From Escherichia phage vB_EcoS_CEB_EC3a, in the sequence record NC_047812.1: a stretch of DNA of 44,234 nucleotides. One strand, given 5' to 3'. The notes beneath the pieces are model-generated. The model was not told where the DNA came from. It did not search any database and saw only the letters and a program-made list of their open reading frames with translations. Within the stretch, counting starts at the first letter, position 1; the number at the start of each line of letters is the position of its first letter. Positions 1 to 44,234 of the stretch are shown piece by piece. Position numbers and translations under genes: made by a program.

Positions 1-404
1 CTAAGCTGACACGTAACGCCTGTAGCGCGATGTAAGCCAATGCCTATCGTTACGCTAGTTACGCGAAGCTACGCCCAGACTTACACTATAAGTGCCTAAT
101 ATATATATATATCTTCTTTCTATTATTATTATTATTATTAATATTATTGTATGTAAGTCATGTAACAGGGGTCCTGGCGATATCTATATGTTTTTTCCTA
201 TCAGTTATAGCCGAGGCTATAATTTAGGGTATGGTGGGGGTGTTTTGGGGATGTTTGCATCGTTACACGCACGACACGCTACTCACATTGAGCTATAGCT
301 GGGCTGGCATGCCATTTCACGTAACGACCCCCAAAAGTTACCAAGAATTACACTTGACTACACGTGTAAGTCGGGATATTATGGACTCAACTTAAACGAG
401 AGGA
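1..404. repeat. Noncoding iteron/AT-rich module, copy A (paralog of 26380-26770)
   Basis: About 10 copies of ACGTAAC/GTTACG-type 7-9-mers in both orientations, a (TA)n plus (ATT)n tract at 99-150, and the 22-mer ACATTGAGCTATAGCTGGGCTG at 285-306, identical to 26677-26698. ORF 92..298 translates to low-complexity sequence. Confidence 0.8.
354..382 (+). promoter_or_regulatory. Strong sigma70-type early promoter (TTGACT-17 nt-TATTAT)
   Basis: TTGACT at 354-359, a 17-nt spacer, TATTAT at 377-382, followed by the AACGAGAGGAG leader and ATG at 414. Confidence 0.7.
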
Positions 405-413
405 GTGATAGAG

Positions 414-893
414 ATGAGCGAGAAGGTAACATTAGGCCAAGTGATTCGTGAGATGGTAAAAGCAGCGCTTAAGTCTGAGGATAAGCAGATCAGCGTGACA
501 CTCAACAAGATTGAGAGCCTTATTGGTGCCGAAGATGGTGGCCTACACAAGCTTAAGAGCTCATACATCTATAATACAACGGCTCGCATGCCTGAATTGA
601 GAGATGCAGGACTGAAGGCAACTCACCATTATGATGAAGAAAGGGGTATTAATGAATTTACTGGGAGTGAGATACTTGGAGACAAGAAGCTGGTTATCAA
701 ACTGATTCCAGGCTCGGCAAACATTGGAATCAGGAAGAAGACCAACGACGCGATCAAGAATGAGGCAATCACTGAGTTCAAGGCGAAGATTTCTAAGGTG
801 ATGCCAGACCTTTCTGAGTATGAGGGTGAAGCGCTTGCGGCAGCGATGAAGGCCATTAAAGATTACCGATTAATTATTGAGGAGATTAAATAA
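414..893 (+). CDS. Hypothetical early protein (159 aa)
   Basis: ORF track 405..893 starts at GTG. ATG 414 sits 8 nt after AGGAG (401-405). First gene behind the consensus promoter. Confidence 0.75.
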   Translation: MSEKVTLGQVIREMVKAALKSEDKQISVTLNKIESLIGAEDGGLHKLKSSYIYNTTARMPELRDAGLKATHHYDEERGINEFTGSEILGDKKLVIKLIPGSANIGIRKKTNDAIKNEAITEFKAKISKVMPDLSEYEGEALAAAMKAIKDYRLIIEEIK

Positions 894-1414
894 TGTTTGA
901 CTTTAAAGACAAACTAACAAGCGAGCAGATCATCAATATTGCACGTGCTGATGGTTATCCACTATTGCGAGTTGCAATCAATGCCAATGGATATCGTAGC
1001 TAAAATAAGTTCTGGGGTCAGCCTGATGCGTCAGAAGTATACAAAGATGAGGCGCTTGGGGTTCTGATTAAGCTAATCATGAAAATGGCAAGGAACGGCA
1101 AAGGAGTTGTCGGCATCAGATATCTATATGAAGGTGCTCGCAAGCTGAAACCATTTGCTGGGCGCGATGGAATGATGCTAGTGATCAAGGACAAGCTAAT
1201 TCCAGAGCTCGATAAGATGAATGTTACCTGTCTAATTGGAGATAAGGTTTACGTCAACCCTGCCTTGACGGATTTAAGCTGGCAACCAAACTTCAAAACT
1301 TACGAAGGTGAGCATGCTAGTAGACTACCATACCACTTGCGGTACAGTGAGGGTGAAGTGGAGATGGCTGTCGAGTTCTACCGGAAAGCTAAATCACTCC
1401 TGAACGGTGAATAG
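893..1414 (+). pseudogene. Internally deleted, nonsense-interrupted paralog of the 527-aa ATPase (40729..42312)
   Basis: One reading frame. MFDFKDKLTSEQIINIARADGYPLLRVAINANGYRS then TAA (1001-1003), then ...ARNGKGVVGIRYLYEGARKLKPF...CLIGDKVYVNP. These match the N-terminus (MFDFNEDKLSVEQ...RVAINANGYRQ) and C-terminus (GKNGKGVVGIRSLYEAARKVKPF...CLIGDKVYINP) of the full gene. The Walker core is missing. Confidence 0.7.
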
Positions 1415-1454
1415 CACGGATTGCTAAACAATGGATCGGGTAGTCAGCTATAAT
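1412..1454 (+). promoter_or_regulatory. Dyad-promoter module (TAGCACGGATTGCTA-22 nt-TATAAT)
   Basis: Core 1412-1426, 22-nt spacer, TATAAT 1449-1454, leader TACCACATCGACAAC. Confidence 0.65.
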
Positions 1455-1478
1455 TACCACATCGACAACAAAGAGGAA

Positions 1479-1685
1479 ATGAAGATGAAAACTATGATTA
1501 TCGAAGATTTCGCAGGTGACATCACTGAGGTGTCTGCTTCAGTATATTACGACGGCATCGTGAGCATTGACATTGACACGGATAACTTAGGCGATGAAAT
1601 TACTATGTCTCACTATACACCAGAGCAAGCGCGCAAACTGGCGGCGGCATTAATCATGGCGGCGGAAGAGTCAGAGAAGCAATGA
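1479..1685 (+). CDS. Hypothetical small early protein (68 aa)
   Basis: ORF 1431..1685 overlaps its own -10 box. ATG 1479 follows AAGAGGAA. Confidence 0.7.
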   Translation: MKMKTMIIEDFAGDITEVSASVYYDGIVSIDIDTDNLGDEITMSHYTPEQARKLAAALIMAAEESEKQ

Positions 1686-1698
1686 ATGAGAAATTATA

Positions 1699-1917
1699 AT
1701 GCAAGTATATACGAATAGTAATGGCGTAGAGTATTGTGTTGTTTACGGAGTGGTTCTTCGCACTGTTGGTGGCCTCGGGATCATCAACATTTCAGTGATC
1801 AAGCCTGAATCACTGGTGAAAGGAATCCAGGCCGGAATCTTCAGCTTTCACTCAACGCTGACGGCTAAGCAGTATGTTACCCTCGCCAACGCGGTTAAGT
1901 ACGGTTTTATCAAATAG
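1699..1917 (+). CDS. Hypothetical small early protein (72 aa)
   Basis: ORF track. The stop TAG is the first triplet of the next dyad module. Confidence 0.6.
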   Translation: MQVYTNSNGVEYCVVYGVVLRTVGGLGIINISVIKPESLVKGIQAGIFSFHSTLTAKQYVTLANAVKYGFIK

Positions 1918-1958
1918 CACTTTTTGTTAAAAAGGGGATTCATCCTGACTGGTGTAAT
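1915..1958 (+). promoter_or_regulatory. Dyad-promoter module, variant half-site (TAGCACTTTTTGTTA-23 nt-TGTAAT)
   Basis: Core 1915-1929, TGTAAT 1953-1958, leader CCCCACATCAACCAAAC. Confidence 0.45.
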
Positions 1959-2110
1959 CCCCACATCAACCAAACAAATGGAAGTTAAGTGACCATATAC
2001 GAACATAAATTCAGCAGTAGGGGTATTGATATGCTCCTGCACTATTTAGACGAAAAATACGCAAATCTCATGCTTAAGGCGCATGGTGGAACAATAACGA
2101 GGATTGAGAT

Positions 2111-2371
2111 ATGAGCAAGTACGACCGCGAGATTATTGGTATTGATGGCACAGTAACAACAGTAGATGTTTATCGCGTTCTTGATGCGTTCAGCGTATCT
2201 GACCCAGCCACTCAGCATGCGGTAAAGAAGATGCTTTGTATGGGGTTGCGTGGACACAAGGATTACATAACCGACCTTAACGACTCAATCGAGTCATTAC
2301 AGAAAGCCAAGGAGCTTTACGGGCAAAAGATGATTCATCAATCGGATAAATCAAATCTGCGTGGTAAATAG
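2111..2371 (+). CDS. Hypothetical early protein, DUF3310-like (86 aa)
   Basis: ORF track with SD AACGAGGA. The segment AVKKMLCMGLRGHKDYITDLNDSIESLQKA resembles the DUF3310 family by eye. Stop TAG lies in the next module. Confidence 0.65.
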   Translation: MSKYDREIIGIDGTVTTVDVYRVLDAFSVSDPATQHAVKKMLCMGLRGHKDYITDLNDSIESLQKAKELYGQKMIHQSDKSNLRGK

Positions 2372-2411
2372 CACGAATTGCTAAACCCTCTCCGCAGGGT
2401 TTTGTTATAGT
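2369..2411 (+). promoter_or_regulatory. Dyad-promoter module (TAGCACGAATTGCTA-22 nt-TGtTATAGT)
   Basis: Core 2369-2383, 22-nt spacer, extended -10 at 2403-2411. Confidence 0.7.
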
Positions 2412-2440
2412 TAGTTCACACCAAACGAGAGGAAAAAAAG

Positions 2441-2671
2441 ATGATTACAATTAACCTGTCAGAGAAAGATGCGTCAACACTCAAGCAGCTTCTTTCAGGA
2501 AATCCGGTGCACACTAATGTTTATAACTTTGGTGAAGTAGAAAGGGAGGTTATCGCACAAATAAACAACCAGCAATTCGACGTAAGTGACTTCGAAAGTT
2601 CTAGACAATACGAGGCGATGAGCGTCAATGCTGCATACCTGACCAACTGGGATAAGGCGACTAATAAATGA
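2441..2671 (+). CDS. Hypothetical small early protein (76 aa)
   Basis: ORF track; SD AACGAGAGGA upstream. Confidence 0.7.
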   Translation: MITINLSEKDASTLKQLLSGNPVHTNVYNFGEVEREVIAQINNQQFDVSDFESSRQYEAMSVNAAYLTNWDKATNK

Positions 2672-2994
2672 TTTACATCCACACATATGGCGTAGGCAAG
2701 TTCGGAAAAGAGATTCATCGCACTGTTCACGATACGAAGGAATCAGCCGAAGCAGCACAAAAAGTTCTAGGCGGTGAGTTCAAGGCTTACCGCGAATCCG
2801 ATGACTCAGTTGATTGCTGGCGTGTAGAGCACATGCGAAACGTGCTTGAAAGTGAAGTATCCGAGCTTATAGACAACATGACATGTCACGGCCCAGGCGG
2901 TCCATGGGAGGAGCCAGGATCACCGGAATGGGATTGCGAAAAAGTTGAAACTATGAACAAGATTAGCGATATAATTGATGGTGTTTATCAGTGA
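2668..2994 (+). CDS. Hypothetical early protein (108 aa)
   Basis: ORF track; ATGA overlap with the upstream gene. Confidence 0.7.
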   Translation: MIYIHTYGVGKFGKEIHRTVHDTKESAEAAQKVLGGEFKAYRESDDSVDCWRVEHMRNVLESEVSELIDNMTCHGPGGPWEEPGSPEWDCEKVETMNKISDIIDGVYQ

Positions 2995-3088
2995 TTTTTT
3001 GATAAAATGATGCATCCTTAACGCCTCTTGGCAGCAGAAGGTGCTCGGTGGCACAATCAAGGTTTGCGAGATAATTAAAGAATACAAA

Positions 3089-3131
3089 TAGCACTAATTG
3101 CTAAACCATCATTGGGGTAATTTGTTATAGT
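3089..3131 (+). promoter_or_regulatory. Dyad-promoter module (TAGCACTAATTGCTA-22 nt-TGtTATAGT)
   Basis: Core 3089-3103, TATAGT 3126-3131. Confidence 0.7.
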
Positions 3132-3161: not shown

Positions 3162-3266
3162 ATGAGTGAATTAATTAAAACTATCGCGGACTATCCATTT
3201 GCTTCGCTTTTTCTTGCTCTTGCAATATATGAAATTGTAAAGATTATTGTAAAATGTATTAAATAG
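3162..3266 (+). CDS. Small hydrophobic peptide (34 aa, one predicted TM helix)
   Basis: Hand-translated MSELIKTIADYPFASLFLALAIYEIVKIIVKCIK. SD AACGAGG; stop TAG in the next module. Below the ORF-track size cutoff. Confidence 0.6.
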   Translation: MSELIKTIADYPFASLFLALAIYEIVKIIVKCIK

Positions 3267-3306
3267 CACGAATTTCTAAAACATTATCGGGGTATCTTGC
3301 TATAGT
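3264..3306 (+). promoter_or_regulatory. Dyad-promoter module (TAGCACGAATTTCTA-22 nt-TGcTATAGT)
   Basis: Core 3264-3278, TATAGT 3301-3306. Confidence 0.65.
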
Positions 3307-3693: not shown

Positions 3694-3833
3694 GTTTCAC
3701 TGAATACGTGATCGCATGCGAGCGACTGGTCTTTGATATGAAAACCTTCCACTGGTTCATCATTAAGGATTTAATCAAGCCTTATAAGCAGGGCGTTACG
3801 CCGGAGCGGTTTGTTAAGTCATTTTATAAATAG
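3690..3833 (+). CDS. Hypothetical small protein (47 aa)
   Basis: ATGA overlap with the upstream ORF; stop TAG is in the next module. Confidence 0.5.
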   Translation: MSFTEYVIACERLVFDMKTFHWFIIKDLIKPYKQGVTPERFVKSFYK

Positions 3834-3873
3834 CACGAATTGCTCAACGCAGTCGACACGGATGGCATATAAT
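3831..3873 (+). promoter_or_regulatory. Dyad-promoter module (TAGCACGAATTGCTC-22 nt-TATAAT)
   Basis: Core 3831-3845, TATAAT 3868-3873. Confidence 0.65.
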
Positions 3874-4745: not shown

Positions 4746-4844
4746 CGTCGCGTTGCTAATGTTGGTTAAAGGGTGGAGCTTATACCTCCATAAAGCAATC
4801 TCCAGATAAGAGATGTAACGCAGGTTCGATTCCTGCCGCGACGA
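4746..4844 (+). tRNA. Aberrant 99-nt tRNA-like gene (possible Ile anticodon UAU or GAU; may be a pseudo-tRNA)
   Basis: Perfect 7-bp acceptor CGTCGCG/CGCGACG, canonical T arm GCAGG-TTCGATT-CCTGC, CCA encoded. The D region is poor, and two competing anticodon hairpins exist (TGGAG-CTTATAC-CTCCA and ATCTC-CAGATAA-GAGAT). Confidence 0.5.
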
Positions 4845-5680: not shown

Positions 5681-7246
5681 ATGTCTTTAGTATGGGAAGA
5701 AATGACCATTCAGGAAAAGATGGCCGTTAAGGCGATATCAGAACACAGCTTCGAGGGTTTCCTTCGTTGCTGGTTCCAGATTACACAAGGCGAGCGATAC
5801 ATCCCTAACTGGCATCACAAGTACTTGTGCAGAATCATTGATGAGATTATCGCAGGAGATCGCAAGGACACCATCATTAACATAGCACCAGGCAGCGGAA
5901 AGACGGAAATTGCCTCAATCCACTTCCCGGCCTATTCGATGGTTAAGCTTAGGAAGGTGCGCAACCTTAACATCTCTTTTGCTGACTCCCTGGTTAAGCG
6001 TAACTCGAAGCGAGTACGTGACCTTATCAAGTCTCAAGAATTTCAGTCACTCTGGCCATGCAAATTTGGCACCTGCAAAGACGATGAGCTTCAGGTTCTT
6101 GATGAGAGTGGCAAGGTTAGATTTGAGTCAATATCAAAGGCGGCTGGAGGCCAGATTACTGGCGCTCGCGGTGGGTACATAACCGAAACATACAGCGGAG
6201 CCGTTCTTTTGGATGACTTTGACAAACCCGCAGATATGTTATCAGCAGTGTACCGCTCGAATAATCACGTAATGCTTAAAAATACGATTCGCTCACGTCG
6301 AGCCAGTTCTGTAAAAGGCAAAGCGACACCAATCATTTCGATACAGCAGCGGCTTCACGTCAATGACTCAACCTATTTCATGATGGAAGGCGGCATGGGT
6401 ATCGAATTCGATTTGATTAAGATACCAGCATTAGTTACTGAGGATTACCTAGACACACTACCTGAATGGATTAAAGAACAGTTTGAAGAGGATGTCCTTA
6501 GTAGTGAATACATAGAGCGCGATGGAGTAAGGTATTACAGCTACTTCCCTAAAAAGGAGTCAGTCAATGACTTGGTTGCGATGTGGGATAGTGACCCTTA
6601 CACCTTCCTTAGTCAGTATCAACAAGAACCAGTAGCTCTAGGTGGCAACCTTATTAACGTAGATTGGTTCCAGCGCCTTAGCGACACGTTCAGACCTCCA
6701 GCTAAGTACGATTATAGATTTATAACTTGCGATACAGCTATGACTACAAAAAGTTATAGTGACTTCTCTGTCCTTCAATTGTGGGGTTATAAAGATGCTA
6801 AGATTTACCTTATTGACCAGCGCAGGGGGAAATGGGAAGCGCCCGAGTTAGAGGCAGAGTTAATCGATTTCGAGAAGAAATCAAGGGCAACCAGTCAATC
6901 GGATGGTATCCTCCGAAAGATTATCATCGAGAAGAAAGCATCTGGAATCGGACTCATTCAATCAGCAAGTCGAGTCATGAGAACGCCAGTGGAACCTTAT
7001 GTTCCTGATAATGACAAGTTAACAAGGGTGATGAGTGCGCTGCCACAGATTAAGGCTGGTAACGTAGTTCTTCCTGAGTCTGCGCCGTGGTTAAGCGGAT
7101 TGCTTACTGAGATTGCGGCATTTACCGCTGACGACAGCCATAATCACGACGACCAAATTGATACCATGACAATGGCTATCAACCTGGTTCTGAACATTGC
7201 GGATGATCCTAAGTCGAGACTGATGCGCATAGCGGGAATGAAATAG
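5681..7246 (+). CDS. terL: Terminase large subunit
   Basis: 521 aa; Walker A PGSGKTE, Walker B-like VLLDDFDK, C-terminal nuclease-like acidic motifs (HDDQIDT). Position upstream of the portal gene. Confidence 0.9.
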   Translation: MSLVWEEMTIQEKMAVKAISEHSFEGFLRCWFQITQGERYIPNWHHKYLCRIIDEIIAGDRKDTIINIAPGSGKTEIASIHFPAYSMVKLRKVRNLNISFADSLVKRNSKRVRDLIKSQEFQSLWPCKFGTCKDDELQVLDESGKVRFESISKAAGGQITGARGGYITETYSGAVLLDDFDKPADMLSAVYRSNNHVMLKNTIRSRRASSVKGKATPIISIQQRLHVNDSTYFMMEGGMGIEFDLIKIPALVTEDYLDTLPEWIKEQFEEDVLSSEYIERDGVRYYSYFPKKESVNDLVAMWDSDPYTFLSQYQQEPVALGGNLINVDWFQRLSDTFRPPAKYDYRFITCDTAMTTKSYSDFSVLQLWGYKDAKIYLIDQRRGKWEAPELEAELIDFEKKSRATSQSDGILRKIIIEKKASGIGLIQSASRVMRTPVEPYVPDNDKLTRVMSALPQIKAGNVVLPESAPWLSGLLTEIAAFTADDSHNHDDQIDTMTMAINLVLNIADDPKSRLMRIAGMK

Positions 7247-7286
7247 CACAAATTGCTAAACACTAAAGCCACGGATGGCGTATAGT
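7244..7286 (+). promoter_or_regulatory. Dyad-promoter module (TAGCACAAATTGCTA-22 nt-TATAGT)
   Basis: Core 7244-7258 contains the terL stop; TATAGT 7281-7286. Confidence 0.65.
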
Positions 7287-25563: not shown

Positions 25564-25606
25564 ATAGTATCGAATCCTTGCGATCAGTGTTTAGCAATTA
25601 GTGCTA
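25564..25606 (-). promoter_or_regulatory. Dyad-promoter module (minus strand) driving lipoprotein and RBP
   Basis: Core 25592-25606, 22-nt spacer, TACTAT (plus-strand ATAGTA 25564-25569), leader TACCACATCGAAACGAAAC. Confidence 0.65.
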
Positions 25607-26251
25607 TTTCTTTTCGAGTAACATCTTGATGTCAATGCCGAGATTATTTTCAATCAATCCAGTCAGTGCATCCGTCTTTTCTTTAAGGGCAAAACACTGA
25701 GCTTCATACTTAAATCTTTCCTCCATCTCGTCAGAGCGACTAACCCAGCACTGGCGAGCCTCGCAAGCCAGCATGTCGAGTTTTTCATCGGTATTCTTAT
25801 CCATGAGTAAGATCTCATTTATTCTTTGCTCTGCAACAATGCGCTGACTAAGGTGTGCATTTTGCGCATTAGCCACACCAAGCATCATTCGCACTTCTTT
25901 TAACTCATCAATGCTTACCATCTGGCTGATTACTTCTTCTTGTTTTTTAACTAATTGCTCAAGCTCATGAAGTCGACGGATAACTTTGTGTCGAAGCACG
26001 ACGCTGTAGCCAGTGATTAGCGTTTCGGTGAGTTCCTTGTTGAGTAAAATCTCAGATGTATAGCCTCGATTGTCTGTAAGTAGTTGATAATCATAATGAC
26101 CCAAATCTGGGGCATCGTTATAATGTAACAATTCATTGATCATTTCCTTTGTGTCGCGAACGACGTGATCATGACGTTTCCCGGTTAACTCTGCGATTTC
26201 CTTTGTGCTCATCATGGTTTTTGGTTGTTCTTTGTACAATTCAATGTTCAT
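25604..26251 (-). CDS. Rha-family phage regulatory protein
   Basis: N-terminus MSTKEIAELTGKRHDHVVRDTKEMI matches the Rha signature. ATG 26251 is preferred because SD AAGAGAG lies 6 nt upstream. Stop TAG is in the next module. Confidence 0.7.
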   Translation of the reverse strand: MNIELYKEQPKTMMSTKEIAELTGKRHDHVVRDTKEMINELLHYNDAPDLGHYDYQLLTDNRGYTSEILLNKELTETLITGYSVVLRHKVIRRLHELEQLVKKQEEVISQMVSIDELKEVRMMLGVANAQNAHLSQRIVAEQRINEILLMDKNTDEKLDMLACEARQCWVSRSDEMEERFKYEAQCFALKEKTDALTGLIENNLGIDIKMLLEKK

Positions 26252-26322: not shown

Positions 26323-26365
26323 AATATAACTAAAGATAGTCAGTTGTCTTTAGCAATTAGTGCTA
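26323..26365 (-). promoter_or_regulatory. Dyad-promoter module (minus strand) driving rha
   Basis: Core 26351-26365, 22-nt spacer, TATATT (plus-strand AATATA 26323-26328). Confidence 0.6.
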
Positions 26366-26379
26366 TTTATCGCCAATTT

Positions 26380-28017: not shown

Positions 28018-28018
28018 A

Positions 28019-28061
28019 TAGCACGAATCGCTAAAGACAAAATTAAAAGGTGGGGTATGAT
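28019..28061 (+). promoter_or_regulatory. Dyad-promoter module (TAGCACGAATCGCTA-22 nt-TATGAT)
   Basis: Core 28019-28033, TATGAT 28056-28061. Confidence 0.55.
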
Positions 28062-32054: not shown

Positions 32055-32078
32055 TGTGTAAAGTCTCCATTTGTAAAG

Positions 32079-32108
32079 TAGCACTAATTGCTAAAGTGGA
32101 TTGTATCA
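32079..32108 (-). promoter_or_regulatory. Fibre-gene promoter (TGaTACAAT) with the TAGCA dyad placed at about +1 to +15
   Basis: On the minus strand: TGATACAAT (32100-32108), 6 nt, then TAGCAATTAGTGCTA (32079-32093). This is operator-over-start geometry, unlike the other copies. Confidence 0.5.
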
Positions 32109-36164: not shown

Positions 36165-36584
36165 ATGCAAATTACAGACAAAGAAGATTACATTGAGTTT
36201 TACCCAGGCCCGGTTAAGTCGTGTCCGAAAGAGGATGACGAACAAATCTTTTGCTCTGATTGGGTTAAGTATAACTACCCGGAGATGGTATTTTTCCACT
36301 GCGTAAATGAGGGGAAGAAAACCATTGGACAGGCAAGAAAGGACCAGGCTAAAGGGCTCCTTAAAGGCGTGTCAGACTGCATGTTTCTTATTCCCGAGTC
36401 TCTGAGAGGCAAATACCCTTTCGGAGCTATAGAGCTGAAGAGGGCTGGCAAAACTCAGGCTAGCCCAGTCAGTGACGAACAGAAGTCTTTCCTTAAAAGC
36501 GTAAGAGAATCAGGCGGTTTCGCTGGTGTTGCCTACGGGCGCGAGGGTTTTCTTGCGGCATTCAAAGAAATGATTTCAAAATAG
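36165..36584 (+). CDS. VRR-NUC domain nuclease
   Basis: GVSDCMFLIP...GAIELKRAGK (D...E-x-K) and size typical of VRR-NUC. Stop TAG is in the next module. Confidence 0.75.
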   Translation: MQITDKEDYIEFYPGPVKSCPKEDDEQIFCSDWVKYNYPEMVFFHCVNEGKKTIGQARKDQAKGLLKGVSDCMFLIPESLRGKYPFGAIELKRAGKTQASPVSDEQKSFLKSVRESGGFAGVAYGREGFLAAFKEMISK

Positions 36585-36624
36585 CACGAATTGCTAAAGA
36601 CGATTTTAAAAGATGCGATATAGT
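36582..36624 (+). promoter_or_regulatory. Dyad-promoter module (TAGCACGAATTGCTA-22 nt-TATAGT)
   Basis: Core 36582-36596, TATAGT 36619-36624, leader TACCACATCGAAACGAAAC. Confidence 0.7.
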
Positions 36625-40728: not shown

Positions 40729-42312
40729 TTACCCCAGCAGTCTAGGATTAATGTAAACTTTATCACCAATCAGGCACGTGTAGTTTTTCTCATCAAGCAT
40801 TGGCAGCAAGTGATCTTTAATCTTCGTCATTACTCCAGCCTGAGCCTCGAATGGCTTAACCTTACGAGCCGCTTCATACAATGAACGAATGCCAACTACG
40901 CCCTTACCGTTCTTACCTTGCTTGATCAGAATATCAATCAGCTTATTCATCTCGGCATTGTCGCCAGCGTGACCAGCGGCGTTAGCAGATGACAAATAAG
41001 TCTTGCTAAGTTCCTGGAACATAATTACAGCCTCTTGCATGGTTTCGAGTTCAATCTCTCTGGACTTCTGCGGACTCCCGCCATTTGGGTTAAACCAGTT
41101 ACGCACAGTGTGAAGGACCGCTGCAATCCTGATAGCCTGCTTATCAAACTTACCAAGCGCACCGCGAAGCATTGTGTGAGAATACTTACCGCCGTCAGCG
41201 AGGTGAGGCTCCATTTCCTGACGTGCTCGGTTGAGGTACTTCATCGCTGAGTTGCTTACTGTCAGCTTAACATCTTGCTCATTCATTATTTCGTGAACCA
41301 AGCGGAAGTAGTCAGCCTTCAGGCCACCATCAATAGGTTCGTAAGTTGAGTCTCCATTCTCATCAACGAATACACGTTCGCCGAGGAATGACTTCTCGCG
41401 CACAAGAAGGAAACGTTCCGATACACCGATACCACGCGCGCCAGCATTCATGATTGCATTGATTGTTTCATCCTGCGCAATTACAGAGATGCAACCCATA
41501 GCAACGAAACTCATGTTGTTTTCTGCGTTCGCACGCGCGATAGACACGTTACCCGCATCCCATGCTTTCAGTACAAGTTCGCTGTTCGTTTTCTTGGATC
41601 CGTCACCGTAGGTCATGCCAAGCAGCGAGTTCACGCTCGTCGCCTCATCCGAGATGACTGCGAAGTTGCCCTGGCGGTTGTTGATTCGAGCAAGGCCTTC
41701 AGGCGTGGTATCTGATACTGGGAATACGATATCGCACAACTTCTCCAGCTTTTCTTCCAGCTCCTCTTTCTCCTCAAAAAGTGAAGCCATCTCTGACGGG
41801 GATTTTTCCTGCTTCATCTCTTTCGATAATGTAGATAGCTTAGCCATAATCTTTTTGCGCTCACGCTTGCGCACTTCATTAAGTCGCTCAGTCTCAGTAA
41901 TCATTGGAGCAATCGAAAGTGAGTTAATGGCCGACTTACCAGTTGATGGCGGTTGGCTTGTCACGACGTAAAGAGATGTTGGCTGTTGGGTGCCATGATA
42001 CTCGACAGTAAAGCGTCCAAGCATTGCGGCAGAAATACACCCAAGGAAGTGCATATAAGCTGAAGACTCTGGAAACTGAACTGAACGAGCGATGTTAGAT
42101 GACAATTTACCAACAACATCAATATCATTTCCTAGTGAGATTACGGGGTATTTGTCATTTGCAGCATCAATCTCCACTGGTGCTTTCCAGAATGATTGAG
42201 ACTGGCGATAGCCATTGGCATTAATGGCGACTCGCAGTGGCGGGAGGTTGTCTGCGGCAGCAATTGCCATAACCTGTTCAACAGATAGTTTATCTTCGTT
42301 GAAATCAAACAT
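40729..42312 (-). CDS. Walker A/B ATPase, DUF3987-like putative replicative helicase/initiator
   Basis: 527 aa. Walker A SQPPSTGKSA, Walker B FAVISDEATS. Overall resemblance to DUF3987/primase-associated helicases, judged by eye. Confidence 0.65.
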   Translation of the reverse strand: MFDFNEDKLSVEQVMAIAAADNLPPLRVAINANGYRQSQSFWKAPVEIDAANDKYPVISLGNDIDVVGKLSSNIARSVQFPESSAYMHFLGCISAAMLGRFTVEYHGTQQPTSLYVVTSQPPSTGKSAINSLSIAPMITETERLNEVRKRERKKIMAKLSTLSKEMKQEKSPSEMASLFEEKEELEEKLEKLCDIVFPVSDTTPEGLARINNRQGNFAVISDEATSVNSLLGMTYGDGSKKTNSELVLKAWDAGNVSIARANAENNMSFVAMGCISVIAQDETINAIMNAGARGIGVSERFLLVREKSFLGERVFVDENGDSTYEPIDGGLKADYFRLVHEIMNEQDVKLTVSNSAMKYLNRARQEMEPHLADGGKYSHTMLRGALGKFDKQAIRIAAVLHTVRNWFNPNGGSPQKSREIELETMQEAVIMFQELSKTYLSSANAAGHAGDNAEMNKLIDILIKQGKNGKGVVGIRSLYEAARKVKPFEAQAGVMTKIKDHLLPMLDEKNYTCLIGDKVYINPRLLG

Positions 42313-42386: not shown

Positions 42387-42806
42387 TTACAGGTACTGGG
42401 CCTCAAAATGGTACGTCTGGCAAAGAGTGTAAAATCCAACATCCTCGCTACGGTAAAGCTGCCAGGCATTGCCATCCTCATCGTAAATGTAACCTGCATT
42501 TTGTCCAAGCCCAGCATGAAGTGCCACCTGGTAACGTTTCCCCTCTTTAAAGTCTTTTTTAATCCCAGATTTGTGATTAACCTTTTTGCAGTAAAGCGTT
42601 TTGGTCTTAATGTACTTACCGCGCCCTTCCAGGTTAATCCATTTGCCATCTTTCTTGATTTGCTCAAATTCCACTTCATCAACTACACCATTAACCAATT
42701 GGTGAACCTTTTTAACGCGAGCTTTGTAGAGTACGTTTTCGTTGCTAACCCAGTTCTTTGTGGTTTTGTTCCATCCGACAGTTATCTTGCAGTAATTGAT
42801 AGTCAT
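42387..42806 (-). CDS. Hypothetical protein (139 aa)
   Basis: ORF 42387..42830. Internal ATG 42806 is preferred because of TAATG coupling and SD GAAGAG. Confidence 0.65.
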   Translation of the reverse strand: MTINYCKITVGWNKTTKNWVSNENVLYKARVKKVHQLVNGVVDEVEFEQIKKDGKWINLEGRGKYIKTKTLYCKKVNHKSGIKKDFKEGKRYQVALHAGLGQNAGYIYDEDGNAWQLYRSEDVGFYTLCQTYHFEAQYL

Positions 42807-42967
42807 TATTTTATTCTCTTCGTTGTCCACATAAATTTGTTTGGTACTGATTTGCGCACGATGCGCACCACAATCTTATCAACCTTCTGAACTAAACCGT
42901 AAATCTTCCCATCAAGTGACGCGCGGTACACTGCCTCTTCCATTGCGTCGTAAAAGTTGTCGAACAT
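42806..42967 (-). CDS. Hypothetical small protein (53 aa)
   Basis: Hand-translated MFDNFYDAMEEAVYRASLDGKIYGLVQKVDKIVVRIVRKS...; coupled at both ends. Confidence 0.55.
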   Translation of the reverse strand: MFDNFYDAMEEAVYRASLDGKIYGLVQKVDKIVVRIVRKSVPNKFMWTTKRIK

Positions 42968-43146
42968 TAAATCGCCACCTTAACCTCAAACTCTTCAATA
43001 AGGTAATAATCAGGAACATAACCAAGAGTTATATCGATATCTAAGAGTCTATTCTTTTCAAATTCAGCTAGTTCCTCTGTATCAAAAACACCAAAGATTT
43101 CAAAGCCATCATAGTTAGTATAACCATTGAGTAAGTAAACTTTCAT
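42967..43146 (-). CDS. Hypothetical small protein (59 aa)
   Basis: Hand-translated MKVYLLNGYTNYDGFEIFGVFDTEELAEFEKNRLLDIDIT...; SD GAGAGGAG and a module promoter. Confidence 0.6.
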   Translation of the reverse strand: MKVYLLNGYTNYDGFEIFGVFDTEELAEFEKNRLLDIDITLGYVPDYYLIEEFEVKVAI

Positions 43147-43175
43147 TTTTTATCTCCTCTCGTTTCGATGAAGTA

Positions 43176-43218
43176 ACTATATAACATCCGTGGCGGTGAG
43201 TTTTAGCAATTCGTGCTA
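43176..43218 (-). promoter_or_regulatory. Dyad-promoter module (minus strand)
   Basis: Core 43204-43218, 22-nt spacer, TATAGT (plus-strand ACTATA 43176-43181), leader TACTTCATCGAAACGAGAGG. Confidence 0.7.
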
Positions 43219-43364
43219 TTTCGTGCCTTCTCAATCGCCTTCAGCACAATCTCGTGAGACTCAAGCAAGTCCTCGTTGAACCAGTCTCCGCAAGGCCAGC
43301 CCTTTCCGCTATAGGCACTTATGACCTCAAGATCGAAATAATTTATCTCAGATGGTAGAAGCAT
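43203..43364 (-). CDS. Hypothetical small protein (53 aa)
   Basis: Hand-translated MLLPSEINYFDLEVISAYSGKGWPCGDWFNEDLL... Stop is the TAA of the module GCTAAA. TGATG coupling upstream. Confidence 0.5.
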   Translation of the reverse strand: MLLPSEINYFDLEVISAYSGKGWPCGDWFNEDLLESHEIVLKAIEKARNSTNC

Positions 43365-43603
43365 CACTTCACCTCGTCAAAAGTTGCAATTCCAGGAATA
43401 AACATTCCAACCTTCCAGCCTGCAATGGAAATCCATCCAGAATTGTGCTTGTGCGGTCGCTCAGCGCCATTAATCACCCACTCGTTCGGGATTGTCTTCC
43501 CGTTAATGATTAGTGGCTCAGCGTCGTATACATAGCCTTTTACGAATGGCGTTAAGACTTTCTTGTCGGTACTGGTGATGCAATTAGTGCAGCGAATTTT
43601 CAT
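43364..43603 (-). CDS. Hypothetical protein (79 aa)
   Basis: ORF track. Confidence 0.65.
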   Translation of the reverse strand: MKIRCTNCITSTDKKVLTPFVKGYVYDAEPLIINGKTIPNEWVINGAERPHKHNSGWISIAGWKVGMFIPGIATFDEVK

Positions 43604-43788
43604 AATTGAACCTCGACCTCATCCTCGAAAACTGTAGCTGGCTTACCAACTGAGTTAATAATGTCAAATGATTTAAGTTCAGTATCCCTATCAATAACAT
43701 CGTAGACCTTGCCAATGAAAAGGCCATAATCAATTTCATCTGACCCGTCCATGTCAATATCTTTAAACTTAACTAACTTGATTTTCAT
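43600..43788 (-). CDS. Hypothetical protein (62 aa)
   Basis: ORF track; ATGA coupling; SD GAGGA. Confidence 0.65.
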   Translation of the reverse strand: MKIKLVKFKDIDMDGSDEIDYGLFIGKVYDVIDRDTELKSFDIINSVGKPATVFEDEVEVQL

Positions 43789-43798
43789 ATCTCAATCC

Positions 43799-43978
43799 TC
43801 AAACAAATGGCAGGCATTCTGCGCATCCAAGCCCATCACAGCACAGAAATTCATCTTCTGACTGGAATTGCCTGGCAATGTCAATATCAATCTTGTCGAG
43901 CAGAACAAGTGCAGTGTAAATCTCATTCAACCCAATCAGTGCGCATTCGTGGCGTAACTCGTCTTTATCAATCTTCAT
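43799..43978 (-). CDS. Hypothetical Cys-rich small protein (59 aa)
   Basis: Hand-translated MKIDKDELRHECALIGLNEIYTALVLLDKIDIDIARQFQSEDEFLCCDGLGCAECLPFV; SD ACGAGGAG and a module promoter. Confidence 0.6.
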   Translation of the reverse strand: MKIDKDELRHECALIGLNEIYTALVLLDKIDIDIARQFQSEDEFLCCDGLGCAECLPFV

Positions 43979-44004
43979 ATCTATCTCCTCGTTTTGATGA
44001 GTTA

Positions 44005-44048
44005 ACTATATCCTCCATGACCCACAATGTCTTTAGCAAAAAGTGCTA
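44005..44048 (-). promoter_or_regulatory. Dyad-promoter module (minus strand) for the leftward early operon
   Basis: Core 44034-44048 (TAGCACTTTTTGCTA on minus), 23-nt spacer, TATAGT (plus-strand ACTATA 44005-44010). Confidence 0.65.
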
Positions 44049-44234
44049 TTCGTTAGATTTATTGATTGTTGCATATATTGCAATGATTATCATGACTATT
44101 GCACATATGGCAATATTGCTTCAGATGCAATGATGTTTTTGATTGTTGCGAAAAGTGAAATGAAGTTGGGAGTGAGTGAATGAAAGATGGATGGACTACC
44201 ATACAAGTTGATTTTGATTCCCGCTGAGCCATTT
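44049..44234. repeat. Noncoding cluster of short AT-rich palindromes and TTGATTGTTGC direct repeats
   Basis: ATTGCAAT, ATGATtATCAT and GCAATATTGC palindromes, TTGATTGTTGC twice, and five TTGCA/TGCAA elements. No credible ORF. Confidence 0.6.

Follow-up and report, generated by a model that had tools for sequence, protein, structure and literature searches.

What kind of gene joins the two ends of a replicative helicase, and why does it carry a stop codon after its first 36 codons? This question is raised by the genome of Escherichia phage vB_EcoS_CEB_EC3a (hereafter EC3a; Drexlerviridae, Braunvirinae, Loudonvirus), analysed here as one stretch of 44,234 nucleotides (nt) from record NC_047812.1, referred to as the window. 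On the plus strand, positions 893-1414 read MFDF...NANGYRS*NKFWGQPDASEVY...NGKGVVGIRYLYEGARKLKPF...CLIGDKVYVNP...LLNGE*, a single frame with a single internal TAA. By exact protein matches, the EC3a annotation assigns gp01 to the product of 414-890, gp02 to 893-1000 and gp03 to 1079-1411. An earlier note on this DNA had related the frame to a 527-residue ATPase encoded elsewhere in the window, and had hesitated between a decaying duplicate of the ATPase gene and a retained domain acting as a regulator. With a probability of roughly 0.55, we propose that 893-1414 is a recently inactivated accessory gene, the intact product of which would mimic the peripheral interaction modules of that ATPase, a helicase.

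The full-length, parent-type paralog is encoded on the minus strand at 40729-42312. It is a DUF3987 MCM-like replicative helicase of 527 amino acids, with an N-terminal three-helix module and a C-terminal winged helix. The protein matches Pfam DUF3987 (PF13148, E 1e-40) and PHROG 2373 'DNA helicase'. Its AlphaFold model has a predicted local distance difference test score (pLDDT) of 89.5 and a predicted template modelling score (pTM) of 0.87. When compared with solved structures, the model has MCM subunits as its best matches (E 5.6e-6, probability 1.0); a sequence search found no solved relative. In this model, the C-terminal winged helix is of the alpha-beta-alpha-alpha-beta-beta type, with helix 451-468, strand 472-474, helices 475-482 and 494-508, and strands 512-515 and 518-521. 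This agrees with the description of DUF3987 proteins as superfamily 6 (SF6) helicases with a winged helix-turn-helix domain at the C-terminus (Kazlauskas et al., PMC4889955). A protein combining PriCT and DUF3987 has been shown to be a 5'-3' helicase (PMC11724360).

Alignment of the small protein with the helicase, which the earlier note had called for, gave significant similarity at both ends. Residues 1-68 of the small frame match helicase residues 1-73 (48% identity, E 3e-16) and residues 58-125 match helicase residues 458-525 (63% identity, E 2e-27), both by BLASTP. For the C-terminal module, comparison of the profiles of the small family and of the helicase family with hhalign gave a probability of 99.6% and E 1.2e-24. 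Thus, the idea of a single frame carrying the helicase ends held, but the N-terminal share had been set too short: since the similarity runs across the stop codon, in an FW motif, about 45 residues are in common, not 36. The small frame consists of these N-terminal ~45 residues, of the C-terminal ~70 residues that form the winged helix, and of a tail of 48 amino acids (residues 126-173). Helicase residues ~50-447 have no counterpart, the parts represented being 1 to ~48 and 448-525, and this bears out the reported absence of the region containing Walker A (QPPSTGKS, ~120-127) and Walker B (ISDE, ~220-223). Hence, the small protein shares homologous N-terminal and winged-helix modules with the DUF3987/SF6 helicases, whereas the motor core is found in the helicases only. 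As the DUF3987 domain (PF13148) with its AAA+ core, Walker A and Walker B, is not present, the small protein cannot itself be a helicase.

The tail had been called novel and about 50 residues long. It is 48 residues long and shows no genuine resemblance to either the helicase or the 3' flank of the helicase gene. An origin of the tail from this flank had been considered because tblastn matches extended past the helicase stop in phages DTL and Rtp. The extension amounts to ~36 residues with ~5 identities and reads into the next gene, so that a flank origin was rejected.

Predicted structures follow the same partition. In AlphaFold 2 models, helices are placed at 10-20, 24-32 and 35-40 in an intact small homolog and at 11-21, 25-33 and 36-41 in the helicase, and the secondary-structure elements of the helicase winged helix recur in the small-protein model. 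The winged helix is basic in both proteins: its calculated isoelectric point (pI) is 9.7 for the small protein and 9.3 for the helicase. The tail of the small protein is predicted to be disordered, then helical. Projected onto the plus strand of EC3a, the open reading frame (ORF) at 893-1003 (gp02, 36 codons plus TAA) corresponds to the helical N-terminal module of the helicase, residues 1-36. Between the stop and the next ATG, the in-frame stretch 1004-1078 covers the linker that separates the domains and the greater part of alpha-1, the first helix of the winged helix; its translation is not expected in EC3a. Finally, the ORF at 1079-1414 (gp03, 111 amino acids) corresponds to the rest of the winged helix (approximately helicase residues 463-525), followed by a conserved linker motif and a terminal helix.

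The small gene belongs to a widespread family. The PHROG 7327 profile aligns with an intact ortholog over positions 1-179 (E 3.6e-75) and with the 111-residue ORF of the window over positions 65-179 (E 2.3e-47). Members of PHROG 7327, also labelled ACLAME 1084 in some records, are hypothetical proteins of T1-like phages, such as bas01_0066 of AugustePiccard, SU57_0002 and CDS0022 of PsgS01F; the helicase-end architecture is not described in the literature searched. The homologous ORF is intact, with 173-175 codons, in PsgS01F, in AugustePiccard and in a Logan contig. Among 5.8 billion protein clusters, 260 related clusters were found, and 113 of the 120 best have a length of 173-177 amino acids. 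At 50% identity, the full-length PHROG 7327 proteins form about ten clusters, accompanied by many fragments. In the phage collection, 405 records match at least the helicase ends, of which 107 contain a full-length match to the small protein; about three quarters of the helicase-bearing records are without the small gene. The window copy resembles the family by its full-length profile match, its place after the DUF7174 gene and its three-part architecture. It differs by TAA at codon 37, by R63M and S77Y, and by the interruption of an ORF that has ~173-177 codons in the other members.

Considering the stop codon, a simple explanation would be that the locus is a recent helicase duplicate that was internally deleted, is decaying and never had a function of its own. 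Its architecture does look like the outcome of an internal deletion of helicase residues ~50-447. The family data refute this explanation, which we regard as highly improbable: length is fixed across more than 100 clusters and several subfamilies, and conservation in the tail is among the highest of the whole protein, above all at PNFK.YEGEH.SRLPYHLRY and in the last helix, EVE.AIEFYRKAK.LLNG. Pairwise ratios of nonsynonymous to synonymous substitution rates (dN/dS) are 0.13-0.46 for the whole gene and stay under 0.7 when the N-terminal module, the winged helix and the tail are taken separately; as judged by these ratios, the family is under purifying selection. The comparison of paralogs points in the same direction. 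Within one phage, the first 42 codons of the small gene and of the helicase gene have 64-70% nucleotide identity and 57-79% amino-acid identity; synonymous sites are saturated whereas amino acids are kept. Because protein identity is at least as high as DNA identity, the duplication must be old and the likeness maintained at the protein level by selection. Recent gene conversion between the two inverted segments was rejected, since nucleotide identity does not exceed amino-acid identity. Thus, decay describes the EC3a copy, with its one-base stop, but not the family. The earlier note had also allowed that relatives might reveal a distinct conserved gene unrelated to the ATPase: the gene is indeed distinct and conserved, yet it is related to the ATPase.

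Between phages whose small proteins share only 41-80% identity, the helicases remain 91-98% identical. The small protein was not seen to vary in step with the allele of either DUF7174 or the helicase, and the region is mosaic.

Some variants were met in the course of the survey. Two IMG/VR contigs of 47180 and 47647 base pairs (bp; L014 and L015) encode a variant subfamily with a longer helicase-like C-terminal part (from helicase residue 432 or 436 to 526), which ends in INPRLLDG like the helicase terminus and is followed by a different, acidic or lysine-rich tail. The metagenome-derived protein P0269 (82 amino acids) is a natural in-frame variant, in which the N-terminal module (~1-31) is joined to the conserved tail and only the winged helix is missing. 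On another hand, gp01 of phage phiKP26 (L005, NC_042038.1) had looked like a second paralog made of winged helix and tail only. It proved to be an artefact: the record is terminally redundant, contains ambiguous bases and repeats the same gene at its two ends, 30-473 and 46389-46961.

What, then, has happened in EC3a? The in-frame TAA seen at 1001-1003 is present at codon 37 of the plus-strand frame. Over positions 880-1056, the window is identical at 176 of 177 nt to an intact allele (L004) that encodes the protein P0049. The sole difference is C to A at 1002, which turns TCA (Ser) into TAA. The aligned codon is TCA in six relatives. In the phage collection, the N-terminal allele of the window is scarce, with a nucleotide identity of at most 75.7%; it is intact in the metagenome-derived proteins P0049, P0113 and P0034, which have Ser at the position of the stop. 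The conceptual 173-residue translation of the window frame is 94% identical to P0049. With a one-base difference from an intact allele, the mutation must be very recent, or an error. Elsewhere in the gene, comparison of 14 aligned sequences showed five other differences unique to the window: three are synonymous and two change the protein. R63M, at 1079-1081, results from AGG to ATG, near the ATG of the conserved Met65 at 1085-1087; among 120 family members, position 63 is Arg in 109 and Met in none. S77Y, at 1121-1123, results from TCT to TAT at a residue that is Ser in 119 of the 120 and is located where helix 2 of the winged helix begins. As far as can be judged from the sequence, the EC3a copy would be a recent pseudogene, with a disabling lesion relative to intact, selected orthologs and few other changes.

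The three protein-changing differences of the window, at 1002, 1080 and 1122, are all C:G to A:T transversions and lie within 121 nt. This triplet could be due to chance, to a mutational signature or to a sequencing artefact. In this context, it may be envisaged that the TAA is a sequencing or assembly error and that the real phage has an intact gene of 173 codons. A single base on an otherwise identical background would be compatible with such an error, as would the shared substitution class, since C:G to A:T changes can come from oxidative damage during library preparation. Moreover, the truncated products were found on one contig only in a search of 15 billion proteins. Against this, such errors seldom reach the consensus at the depth usual for phage sequencing, and the site is outside a homopolymer. 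Equivalent lesions are common in independently sequenced relatives, and one of them affects the same codon in phage ETEP102 (see below). An error is thus quite improbable.

If the TAA is real, which products would EC3a make? The small gene overlaps the preceding DUF7174 gene by TAATG, with the DUF7174 stop at 891-893 and the ATG at 893-895, so that the coupling proposed earlier is sound. As the start is coupled and preceded by GAGGAG, the 36-residue peptide should be made. Programmed read-through or suppression of the TAA might in principle give the full-length protein, the frame being open and conserved beyond the stop. This is barely credible: in E. coli, termination is efficient at TAA when the next base is A, the window yielded no suppressor tRNA, and conservation past the stop is accounted for by so recent a mutation. 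The window does contain a tRNA-Arg(UCU) gene and a tRNA-like gene with anticodon UAU. The latter (4746-4844, plus strand, 99 nt) scores 41 bits with the Rfam tRNA model and has an anticodon loop CUUAUAC (UAU, Ile) and an insertion of ~27 nt in the variable region; it is not called by ARAGORN and is annotated as tRNA-Ile in PsgS01F.

A product starting downstream of the stop is doubtful. The pair of ATG codons attributed to the C-terminal part is there, at 1079 and 1085, the first one 75 nt after the stop, and no Shine-Dalgarno-like sequence was seen 5-12 nt upstream of either. According to the helicase model, such a start would correspond to helicase residues 463-465, within helix 451-468, and about two thirds of alpha-1 of the winged helix would be missing. 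With a stop, a weak restart and no suppressor, the EC3a copy is best read as a null allele or a weak hypomorph. EC3a is nevertheless a productive lytic phage, which has served in biofilm studies. Since the phage is productive with a broken copy, the small gene would be dispensable on its laboratory host.

EC3a is not an isolated case. Among relatives, which the earlier note had suggested checking, intact genes (113 of 120 of intact length), broken copies and deletions were all found. Two samples were not chosen for abnormality, 12 IMG/VR loci and 10 distinct metagenome loci; the other cases came from following odd matches. In the first sample, the small gene is disrupted at three loci: in DTL (L003/L006), in the Veterinaerplatzvirus 12210I group (L009) and in IME542 (L013), the last with an added frameshift inside the winged helix. 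Three of the metagenome loci are also affected (L037, L038 and L041). About 25-30% of related lineages thus carry lesions in the small gene. Beyond these samples, the Ser codon that is lost in the window is also TAA in ETEP102 (L049), likewise derived from TCA. In OzMSK (L028), Gln36 is changed to TAA and a second stop is present. Rao1 and CY1 (L048 and L053) have a common stop at Gln12, and Rao1 has a further one at Gln44. Four phages retain of the small gene only the last ~32 codons: T145P1 (L029, region ~1400-1600), and ES (L054), A110b (L055) and 2725-N35 (L056), all three in the region ~880-1000. In these phages, the DUF7174 frame ends in the TAGTAG of 'GCTAGTAGAC', out of frame in DNA coding for the tail. 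The tail remnant of the deletion phages has 70-85% protein identity and no evident start codon.

The positions of the lesions deserve attention. In nine lineages, the first nonsense lesions fall at codons 12, 34, 36, 37/38 (twice), 139, 140, ~145 and 151. None of the nine falls within codons 48-127, the winged helix, which account for 39% of the one-step nonsense target (P = 0.011), and eight of the nine are in the two interdomain linkers (P = 1e-3, weighted by mutational target). In the protein library, short N-terminal fragments mostly break at codons 39-47. These clustering tests were post hoc, and the protein-fragment data are biased to lesions after about codon 35, so that the clustering in linkers is suggestive. 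It may be that truncations within the winged helix are harmful and that clean linker cuts alone survive.

This clustering brings up another scenario, in which the split gene is still functional, the stop in the linker between N-terminal module and winged helix separating two products by design or in a tolerated way. The coupled 36-residue N-terminal peptide would act together with a re-initiated protein made of winged helix and tail, and R63M would be a compensatory change improving the restart. The avoidance of the winged helix by independent nonsense lesions fits this scenario, and so do the frameshifted N-terminal fragments of the library that mostly end at codons 39-47. ETEP102 has its TAA at the very codon affected in the window, and R63M, unique among 120 family members, creates an in-frame ATG. 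The natural in-frame variant P0269, without the winged helix only, also counts in its favor. Several observations argue against it, however. Neither ATG is preceded by a visible Shine-Dalgarno sequence, the first being 75 nt past the stop, and the product would lack ~2/3 of alpha-1 and carry S77Y at a nearly invariant Ser. The stop at codon 12 in Rao1 and CY1 and the frameshift in the winged helix of IME542 indicate that simple inactivation also occurs, and four phages have deleted nearly the whole gene. Domain boundaries were moreover compared with the lesions after the fact, with fragment data biased as mentioned. Overall, a functional split gene is unlikely, if worth keeping in view. The same evidence bears on the earlier idea that the region codes for a regulator or dominant-negative form of the helicase: it is reasonable for the intact family and weak for 1079-1414, given R63M, S77Y, the missing Shine-Dalgarno sequence and a start inside alpha-1.

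What would the intact protein do? In the reading that we favor, that of a recently inactivated mimic of the helicase ends, the intact protein would be an ancient internal-deletion paralog of the MCM-like DUF3987 helicase, which would have kept two peripheral modules, lost the AAA+ motor and gained a linker motif and a terminal helix that are conserved and specific to the family. Both modules are still helicase-like after a long separation, and the simplest interpretation is that whatever they bind in the helicase, one ligand or more, they still recognize. The protein would thus be a mimic or competitor, or possibly an adaptor, occupying the partner protein or the DNA site of the helicase N-terminal module and winged helix. 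In the structure predictions, its tail looks like an added binding motif, and this conserved tail would supply an extra contact. As a result, recruitment of the helicase would be modulated, or the helicase would be shielded from a host factor. The benefit would depend on the host, which would explain fast evolution and frequent loss. The contrast between stable helicases and diverged small proteins, the absence of the gene from about three quarters of the records and its frequent breaks argue for an accessory, host-dependent role rather than a core role in replication. In EC3a, a single C to A change (TCA to TAA, nt 1002) would have inactivated the gene very recently: ribosomes coupled from the DUF7174 gene would make the 36-residue peptide and then stop, and any product from 1079 or 1085 would be poor in yield and without most of alpha-1.

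Known systems offer points of comparison. The MCM C-terminal winged helices have the same predicted alpha-beta-alpha-alpha-beta-beta topology, at the end of an MCM-like fold, as the winged helix of the phage helicase. In MCM proteins, winged helices are docking and regulatory modules: that of Mcm6 binds Cdt1 and that of Mcm3 binds ORC/Cdc6, and the winged-helix domain of archaeal MCM damps ATPase and helicase activity. The phage winged helix, of the predicted topology and with a pI of 9.3-9.7, may be a candidate for contact with DNA. Truncated forms that compete with a full-length protein are also known, as with herpes simplex virus 1 OBPC (UL8.5) and UL9, papillomavirus E2-TR or E8^E2 and E2, the Tn5 inhibitor and transposase, and phiX174 A* and A. 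Like these forms, the small protein is a shortened relative that retains interaction or DNA-binding modules without the catalytic core, beside the full-length protein. However, they arise from the same gene by internal starts or splicing, whereas the small paralog is a separate, diverged gene on the opposite strand. It also differs from them in combining the two termini and in carrying a conserved tail of its own, and a competitor role is here deduced from the architecture.

A variant of this view may also be considered. The PHROG 7327 proteins could be stand-alone mimics engaged in a host-dependent conflict, in which they would serve a host factor as decoy or adaptor, or be what a host defence senses; the recurrent linker stops, with the Ser codon hit in both EC3a and ETEP102, and the whole-gene deletions would then be adaptive escapes or cases of domain splitting, not random decay. 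We consider this distinctly unlikely. PADLOC returned no family for the small protein, the DUF7174 protein or the helicase, and no match to a known defence-system model. The passages searched of a Druantia/Zorya preprint do not mention DUF3987.

Some points weigh against a recently inactivated helicase-end mimic and are best considered together. The AlphaFold 2 model of the small protein is of low confidence (pLDDT 64, pTM 0.31), so that the winged-helix assignment rests mainly on homology to the well-modelled helicase domain. A fold search of the PDB with this model gave no significant match: the best, at E 0.3, is to Mcm4, with several winged-helix-containing proteins lower. The small protein has no Pfam match at E up to 0.1, and NCBIfam, PADLOC and PDB sequence searches were also blank. 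The nonsense allele occurs in one record only, which makes a base-calling error possible. The window branch has three synonymous and three protein-changing unique changes, too few to show relaxed constraint after the stop. Finally, the clustering of lesions in linkers could mean that split or shortened versions keep some function.

The genomic surroundings of the small gene are well conserved. The phage-collection records closest to EC3a are PsgS01F and UALMA_PCEc3 (~93-95% identity), followed by AugustePiccard and DTL. The preceding gene (414-893, plus strand; PHROG 4841; gp01) encodes a DUF7174 protein of 159 amino acids, and its stop overlaps the start of the small paralog; the literature search returned no papers on DUF7174. 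The small gene directly follows the DUF7174 gene in every relative examined (L001-L017 and L046-L053, from Braunvirinae, Rogunavirinae and Nouzillyvirus). Before this operon, a candidate sigma-70-like promoter, TTGACT-17-TATTAT, is found at 354-382 on the plus strand. It is a consensus match only, which is not significant alone (four such sites found against 4.7 expected in shuffles). A large noncoding region had been thought to span the window ends. This did not hold: small ORFs on the minus strand occupy 42387-44232, and as these leftward ORFs fill the end of the window, the noncoding gap between the divergent gene sets is only ~413 nt (1-413). This intergenic region contains 11 copies of GTAAS/STTAC (YGTAAS-type), at about 5-10 times the genome density, flanking an AT-rich tract at ~95-150. 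From its sequence features, it is a candidate origin or regulatory region.

A 19-nt element, ATAGCACGRATTGCTAAAC, with the palindrome TAGCA-N5-TGCTA, occurs 12 times in the window (at most three mismatches), against 0.01 expected. Copies are found on the plus strand at 1411-1429, 2368-2386, 3088-3106, 3263-3281, 3830-3848 and 7243-7261, and further copies at 25589-25607 (minus), 26348-26366 (minus), 28018-28036, 32078-32096, 36581-36599 and 43201-43219 (minus). The first copy starts within the stop codon of the small gene and overlaps the -35 box of a promoter-like site at 1425-1454; the element after this stop is kept in almost every relative. A phage promoter, an operator or an RNA element may be considered.

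Three of the records used call for a remark on their labels. PP134917.1 (PsgS01F), MG065688.1 (A110b) and OR786094.1 (MBBL140) are labelled as Pseudomonas, Campylobacter and Streptococcus phages, respectively, yet their genomes match those of T1-like coliphages. Over positions 1-3000 of the window, PsgS01F shows 95% identity, and MBBL140 has the helicase N-terminal segment in common (62% protein identity). These host labels look doubtful.

A first outcome of this study concerns annotation: gp02 and gp03 of EC3a are the halves of one gene broken by a single base, not two genes. The break in EC3a is in itself ordinary; what merits experiment is the family, with its losses that recur in the linkers. 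For comparison, natural knock-outs are at hand in EC3a, ETEP102, OzMSK, DTL, Rao1 and CY1 and the deletion variants, together with the intact gene of AugustePiccard from the BASEL collection. A family that was catalogued but uncharacterised, that evolves fast and that, in many T1-like coliphages, heads an operon can now be approached with a testable idea. As the small protein copies exactly two peripheral modules of the helicase, it should point to their ligand, which would be primase, parts of the host replisome, origin DNA or a defence sensor.

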